DNA from: Escherichia coli
GTDB taxonomy: Bacteria; Pseudomonadota; Gammaproteobacteria; Enterobacterales; Enterobacteriaceae
NCBI RefSeq assembly: GCF_003334315.1
Contig: NZ_QOWR01000118.1
Reading direction: 5' to 3' (one strand)
Length of the DNA: 1,281 nt
Below the pieces are notes generated by a model. It searched no databases, was not told the DNA's origin, and saw only the letters and a list, made by a program, of their open reading frames with translations. Positions 1-438 of the stretch are shown here, one piece after another. Position numbers and translations under genes: made by a program. Every line of letters starts with the position of its first letter. Position 1 is the stretch's first letter.

Positions 1-438
1 AGGCCGCAGTCGGTAACCTCGCGCATACAGCCGGGCAGTGACGTCATCGTCTGCGCGGAAATGGACGAACAGTGGGGATACGTCGGGGCTAAATCGCGCC
101 AGCGCTGGCTGTTTTACGCGTATGACAGGCTCCGGAAGACGGTTGTTGCGCACGTATTCGGTGAACGCACTATGGCGACGCTGGGGCGTCTTATGAGCCT
201 GCTGTCACCCTTTGACGTGGTGATATGGATGACGGATGGCTGGCCGCTGTATGAATCCCGCCTGAAGGGAAAGCTGCACGTAATCAGCAAGCGATATACG
301 CAGCGAATTGAGCGGCATAACCTGAATCTGAGGCAGCACCTGGCACGGCTGGGACGGAAGTCGCTGTCGTTCTCAAAATCGGTGGAGCTGCATGACAAAG
401 TCATCGGGCATTATCTGAACATAAAACACTATCAATAA
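1..438 (+). CDS. insB: IS1 transposase InsB frame (C-terminal part of InsAB'), 5'-truncated by the window edge
   Basis: Frame 1 is open from position 1 to the TAA at 436-438 and encodes about 145 aa, of which the listed ORF 61-438 is the Met-initiated part. In IS1 this frame is normally expressed as an InsAB' fusion by -1 frameshifting upstream of this window (established knowledge). Confidence 0.93.

Follow-up and report, generated by a model that had tools for sequence, protein, structure and literature searches.

The first 453 bases of the window, by which is meant the whole 1,281-nucleotide stretch of Escherichia coli DNA analysed here (assembly GCF_003334315.1, contig NZ_QOWR01000118.1), are very probably the right-hand part of a standard IS1R-type IS1 element that transposed into ybfB, with ordinary polymorphisms relative to IS1A. 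IS1R is represented by two copies on plasmid R100/NR1 (NC_002134), one on either side of its r-determinant; the plasmid is assigned in its record to Shigella flexneri 2b, and both of these 768-bp copies were extracted for comparison. Over the comparable part of the element (IS1 positions 316-768) they match the window at 453/453 bases, with zero differences, and share with it GGGATACGTCGGG, the right inverted repeat and Arg130. The first IS1 to be sequenced was this IS1R, which is the usual reference, and catalogues of IS1 sequence types go back to about 1980-1991. The three differences from IS1A are normal, long-known polymorphisms between an IS1A/E type and an IS1R/B/C/D type; the IS1R-type copy is already known, and nothing about the copy in the window is new.

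By its sequence, the 453-base segment is classed in the IS1 family. PF03400 (DDE_Tnp_IS1) was matched over its full model (1-131/131) with an E-value of 1.7e-78 in the Pfam search, and the NCBIfam model NF033558 (IS1 family transposase) scored 139.8 bits (cut-off 100). Base 1 of the window is IS1 position 316 and lies directly beyond the A6C frameshift motif (IS1 positions 307-313), so that the window holds 59% of the element; IS1 positions 1-315, with insA, the A6C motif, the left repeat and the left junction, fall outside it. InsAB' is the DDE transposase of IS1 and is produced by -1 frameshifting (PMC12428005). Residues 88-232 of InsAB' are read in frame 1 of the window and equal the C-terminal 145 residues of InsB. 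An open reading frame at 61-438 (plus strand, ATG start, 125 amino acids) was considered as a separate gene and rejected, being an in-frame internal part of InsB/InsAB'. The sequence-only reading had assumed that IS1 ends on the right at base 453, and the inverted repeat at 431-453 bears this out. The coordinates of all features are collected in the table.

Features of the window and IS1 target positions at the corresponding K-12 locus
Feature	Position	Strand	Basis
Right-hand part of IS1, 453 bp of the 768-bp element (IS1 positions 316-768)	1..453	+	Ungapped alignment to K-12 IS1A-F and both R100 IS1 copies
C-terminal coding part of InsAB', residues 88-232, stop at 436-438, DDE catalytic domain	1..438	+	PF03400, NF033558, translation
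Stretch singled out by the sequence-only reading; three sites splitting the IS1R/B/C/D type from the IS1A/E/I type	61..140	+	Sites 78 (A), 81 (C), 129 (G)
Right terminal inverted repeat of IS1, 23 bp, ATCAATAAGTTGGAGTCATTACC	431..453	+	Same 23 terminal bases as in K-12 IS1A-E and IS1R
Target sequence CAGTCCCTA adjoining the IS1 end	454..462	.	9-bp direct repeat in genomes with IS1 at the same site; only the right junction lies in the window
First 67 of the 108 codons of ybfB (5' two-thirds), interrupted by IS1	454..656	-	Alignment to K-12 rhsC-ybfB
3' end of rhsC: last part of the Rhs core, DPIGL boundary motif, variable C-terminal tip; stop at 656-658	656..1281	-	Translation; equal to K-12 rhsC
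IS1 target sites or adjoining flank positions, in coordinates of the K-12 locus (L010)	6853-6861, 6984, 6982-6990, 7040-7047, 7068-7076, 7084-7092, 7120, 7131-7139		

The difference from IS1A was established by an ungapped base-by-base comparison of bases 1-453 with every IS1 copy annotated in E. coli K-12 MG1655 (seven in all). IS1A, IS1E and IS1I are mutually identical and share length, ends and gene organisation with the window copy, with 450/453 bases identical; each differs at bases 78 (A in the window, C in IS1A), 81 (C against T) and 129 (G against T), which are IS1 positions 393, 396 and 444. Bases 75-87 of the window accordingly read GGGATACGTCGGG, where IS1A, IS1E and IS1I of K-12 read GGGCTATGTCGGG. 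Site 78 keeps glycine (GGA/GGC) and site 81 tyrosine (TAC/TAT), both changes being silent, while the change at 129 turns AGT (Ser) into AGG (Arg) at residue 65 of InsB, which is residue 130 of InsAB' (Ser130Arg), so that the InsB frame reads FYAYDRLRK in the window and FYAYDSLRK in IS1A. An IS1A copy would have C at IS1 position 393, T at 396 and T at 444 (Ser130); the window has A, C and G. Chance is not an issue in such a base-for-base comparison of near-identical repeats.

The "canonical" strings given by the sequence-only reading, GGGCTATGTCGGG and FYAYDSLRK, are thus exactly the IS1A sequence, and every difference falls inside the stretch 61-140 that it had picked out. Its further claim, that the copy is a sequence variant of canonical IS1, holds in part: the copy is not IS1A, from which three bases separate it, and can be assigned to a named group of iso-forms, but it is IS1R at 453/453 bases. 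An exact match to IS1A or IS1R had been set beforehand as the result that would speak against a variant, and such a match was obtained for IS1R and fails for IS1A. The term "canonical IS1" is ambiguous: workers on K-12 mean IS1A/E by it, and plasmid and ISfinder users mean IS1R. Both usages are found in the literature, where the IS1A/IS1E sequence has been defined as the IS1 "consensus" for K-12 work (PMC12428005) and IS1R has served as the reference sequence under accession AH003427.2 (PMC8767348).

K-12 itself carries both types, IS1A/E/I and IS1B/C/D. The IS1B/IS1C and IS1D copies have the state of the window at all three sites and are 452/453 identical to it, IS1B/C having A where the window has T at base 389 (Leu to Gln in InsB) and IS1D having T where the window has C at base 316 (His to Tyr). 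IS1F is far more distant, with 42 differences from bases 1-453. Published mismatch counts against the consensus are 9 in IS1B/C and IS1D and 73 in IS1F (PMC12428005), and these agree with the K-12 comparison made here. Over the full element, IS1R and IS1A differ at seven bases (262, 298, 301, 304, 393, 396 and 444), of which only two affect InsAB' (L81F and S130R).

Database annotation does not follow these types. Copies with 100% identity over the 453 bases are labelled in RefSeq either "IS1B family" or "IS1A family" (six and three, respectively, of nine such rows), and the IS1R copies of R100 themselves carry the label "IS1-like element IS1B family transposase". As identical copies bear different labels, iso-form names in annotation are unreliable for sequence type.

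The arginine at residue 130 can be placed relative to the probable active site of the transposase. Three conserved segments are found in the window, EMD109EQW, WMTD166GW and RIE192RHNLNLR, the last with an arginine seven residues past the glutamate. From these segments and the E-x7-R signature, D109, D166 and E192 are the likely catalytic D, D, E residues; residue numbers for the IS1 catalytic site are absent from the 2025 IS1 papers. Residue 130 lies in FYAYD-R/S-LRK, between the first and second segments, 21 residues past the candidate first catalytic aspartate (EMD109EQW) and outside the conserved D, D, E segments. Furthermore, in clinical isolates, two cases of nfsA disruption were traced to IS1R copies that matched the reference without divergence and had 9-bp direct repeats on either side (PMC8767348). 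Newly inserted IS1R of this kind indicates that Arg130 together with Phe81 is compatible with activity. Arg130 is therefore probably tolerated and may be functionally neutral, and the window's own IS1 copy may likewise be active. Certainty about the neutrality of Arg130 is tempered by the IS1B, IS1C and IS1D copies of K-12, which hardly transpose (PMC12428005). These copies have both Arg130 and Phe81; they also carry changes that IS1R lacks, namely T at position 127 plus a change at 704 or 631.

The identity with IS1R holds for the right-hand 453 bases, and it is possible, if somewhat doubtful, that the full element is a mosaic or a close relative of IS1R that is IS1R-identical only in this part. 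A hybrid with an IS1A-type left part and an IS1R-type right part would be one candidate, and the position-8 variant of 2018-11-3CC and H9Ecoli another. Precedents for both exist among copies that match the window at 453/453 bases: that of CUWW10 has the IS1A state at 262, 298, 301 and 304, and those of 2018-11-3CC and H9Ecoli have a single change at position 8. The mixed annotation of the nine 100% rows, three as "IS1A family" and six as "IS1B family", points the same way, and the four IS1A/IS1R sites at 262-304, together with positions 8, 50 and 127, lie outside the window, which itself cannot discriminate between these forms. Against this, full IS1R-like copies seem, on a rough count, to be the commoner class among the exact matches, and a standard IS1R-type element is preferred.

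How widespread this sequence is was assessed by searching complete E. coli genomes and plasmids. The 453-base query matched 9,484 records from 4,968 of the 5,426 complete E. coli genomes, and a 453/453 match was found in roughly 2,600-2,900 E. coli records, as estimated from evenly spaced rows. The 80 bases at 61-140 were used as a haplotype probe, for which an identity of at least 99% means 80/80. Exact matches to the window haplotype came to 5,502 E. coli records, compared with 6,755 for the IS1A haplotype. On plasmids the window haplotype was exact in at least 5,000, all listed matches being exact. The best 5,000 plasmid matches, 3,835 of which are conjugative plasmids, were spread over Escherichia (2,026), Klebsiella (1,910), Enterobacter (354), Salmonella (292), Citrobacter (170), Shigella (140) and other genera. 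For the IS1A haplotype the exact plasmid records numbered 4,708, distributed over the genera in much the same way and including Shigella plasmids.

The three sites are also incompletely linked, as two mosaic copies show. In CUWW10 (L013, 2304-3071) the copy is IS1A-like at IS1 positions 262-304 and IS1R-like at 393, 396 and 444, and in LR-03 (L002, 3686-4453) it is IS1A-like at 393 and 396 with the IS1R base G at 444. Such copies are evidence for recombination between IS1 iso-forms.

It had been suggested from the sequence alone that the copy is an iso-form common in Shigella and some E. coli lineages, and that it could help to type the host background. The difference from K-12 IS1A at three sites, the record of the identical R100 sequence from S. 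flexneri 2b and the 140 Shigella plasmids among the best 5,000 plasmid matches are in keeping with a distinctive iso-form of this kind. However, the exact haplotype occurs in 5,502 E. coli records and at least 5,000 plasmids, mostly conjugative, both types occur within K-12, the mosaics unlink the three sites, and the IS1A haplotype is likewise found on Shigella plasmids. A distinctive iso-form of Shigella and certain E. coli lineages that is useful for host typing is thus largely refuted and highly improbable. Of the suggestion itself, the presence in Shigella stands, in that both types were found on Shigella plasmids (the collection on which this part of the claim was tested), but the distribution named was far too narrow given the many genera involved. 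The proposed help in typing the host was not borne out, because a haplotype that is exact in thousands of E. coli records and on plasmids of many genera leaves the host untypable by it. The variant is real, but it is ubiquitous, horizontally mobile and recombining, and has no typing value.

The sequence to the right of the element is that of the K-12 rhsC-ybfB region. Over the 828-base flank there were 0 mismatches and 1 indel (an extra A) relative to K-12, and the flank was matched at 99% or above in about 2,600 complete E. coli genomes; the host background at rhsC-ybfB is thus K-12-like, as in thousands of genomes. The extra A lies in a run of eight at 636-643, where K-12, LR-03 and STN0717-20 have seven, and it shifts the frame of ybfB (on the minus strand) at codons 5-8. 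None of the complete E. coli genomes matched the whole flank at 100% as one unbroken alignment, which makes the extra A private to the window: a real mutation that shifts the ybfB frame early on, or a homopolymer error.

On this background, the target of IS1 transposition would have been ybfB, the small, AT-rich gene that follows rhsC, which is split after codon 67. IS1 prefers AT-rich targets, and the GC content of the ybfB segment, at 32%, fits this preference. The exact IS1/ybfB junction was absent as a single piece from the 5,426 complete E. coli genomes, in which the best same-site matches have a diverged IS1, and it gave 0 matches in GTDB species-representative genomes and 0 in JGI metagenome contigs. 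Similarly, the 45-amino-acid truncated YbfB product was not found in the gene-position index. The neighbouring rhsC tip is intact and equal to that of K-12: it is cysteine-rich and extends about 150 amino acids past DPIGL (in the context YITQDPIGL). The NCBIfam RHS_core model and TIGR03696 match only residues 1-57 of the rhsC part; the C-terminal tip had no match to a Pfam family, and YbfB had none in NCBIfam.

About 27 complete E. coli genomes carry an IS1 at exactly the same nucleotide of ybfB, with the same orientation and with CAGTCCCTA on both sides. In STN0717-20 (L009, 2307-3074), for instance, the arrangement reads ATACAGTCCCTA, then IS1, then CAGTCCCTATAA, and this genome and about 26 others share with the window the insertion nucleotide, the orientation and the 9-bp target. 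The IS1 of these about 27 genomes is nevertheless another sequence, with 41 mismatches to the window over 453 bases (~9% divergence); the full 768-base copy of STN0717-20 is 46 bases away from IS1R and 34 from IS1F. The diverged copies are annotated only as "IS1 family transposase".

A shared site with a different occupant could mean that an IS1R-type sequence took the place of an older, diverged IS1 by homologous recombination or gene conversion. Besides the coincidence of site and orientation in about 27 genomes whose IS1 differs at 41/453 bases, the mosaic copies show that recombination between IS1 elements happens. We nevertheless regard replacement as unlikely: no mosaic tract was seen, all 41 sites being in the IS1R state, and the flank of the window equals K-12, where that of STN0717-20 differs at 3-4 sites, which suggests different backgrounds. 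The density of insertions at the locus also speaks against it. Across genomes, at least nine distinct IS1 insertion points were found within about 290 bp around ybfB (loci L002, L009 and L011-L018; window 454-760), occupied by IS1A-like, IS1R/B-like and IS1F-like elements, IS1X2 and IS1X4, and two IS1 copies in other genomes lie 6 and 12 bp from the site in the window, in the opposite orientation. The AT-rich stretch of ybfB is a recurrent IS1 target, and a dense hot spot with other copies only 6 and 12 bp away makes independent re-use of one nucleotide plausible. The shared site is most simply explained by independent insertion at this hot spot, and the insertion in the window probably arose by independent transposition and not by replacement of an older IS1.

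For the typing of strains, a haplotype of three IS1 bases that travels on thousands of conjugative plasmids cannot identify the host, and the informative marker is the insertion junction. There is a low probability that the locus holds something more, either IS-IS gene conversion by a plasmid-type IS1 or a very sharp IS1 hot spot that repeatedly destroys ybfB beside an intact Rhs tip. If YbfB were the cognate immunity protein, an intact Rhs toxin tip without its immunity would be notable. As it stands, the repeated insertion of IS1 into ybfB is a minor curiosity for research on Rhs loci or on the choice of targets by IS1.
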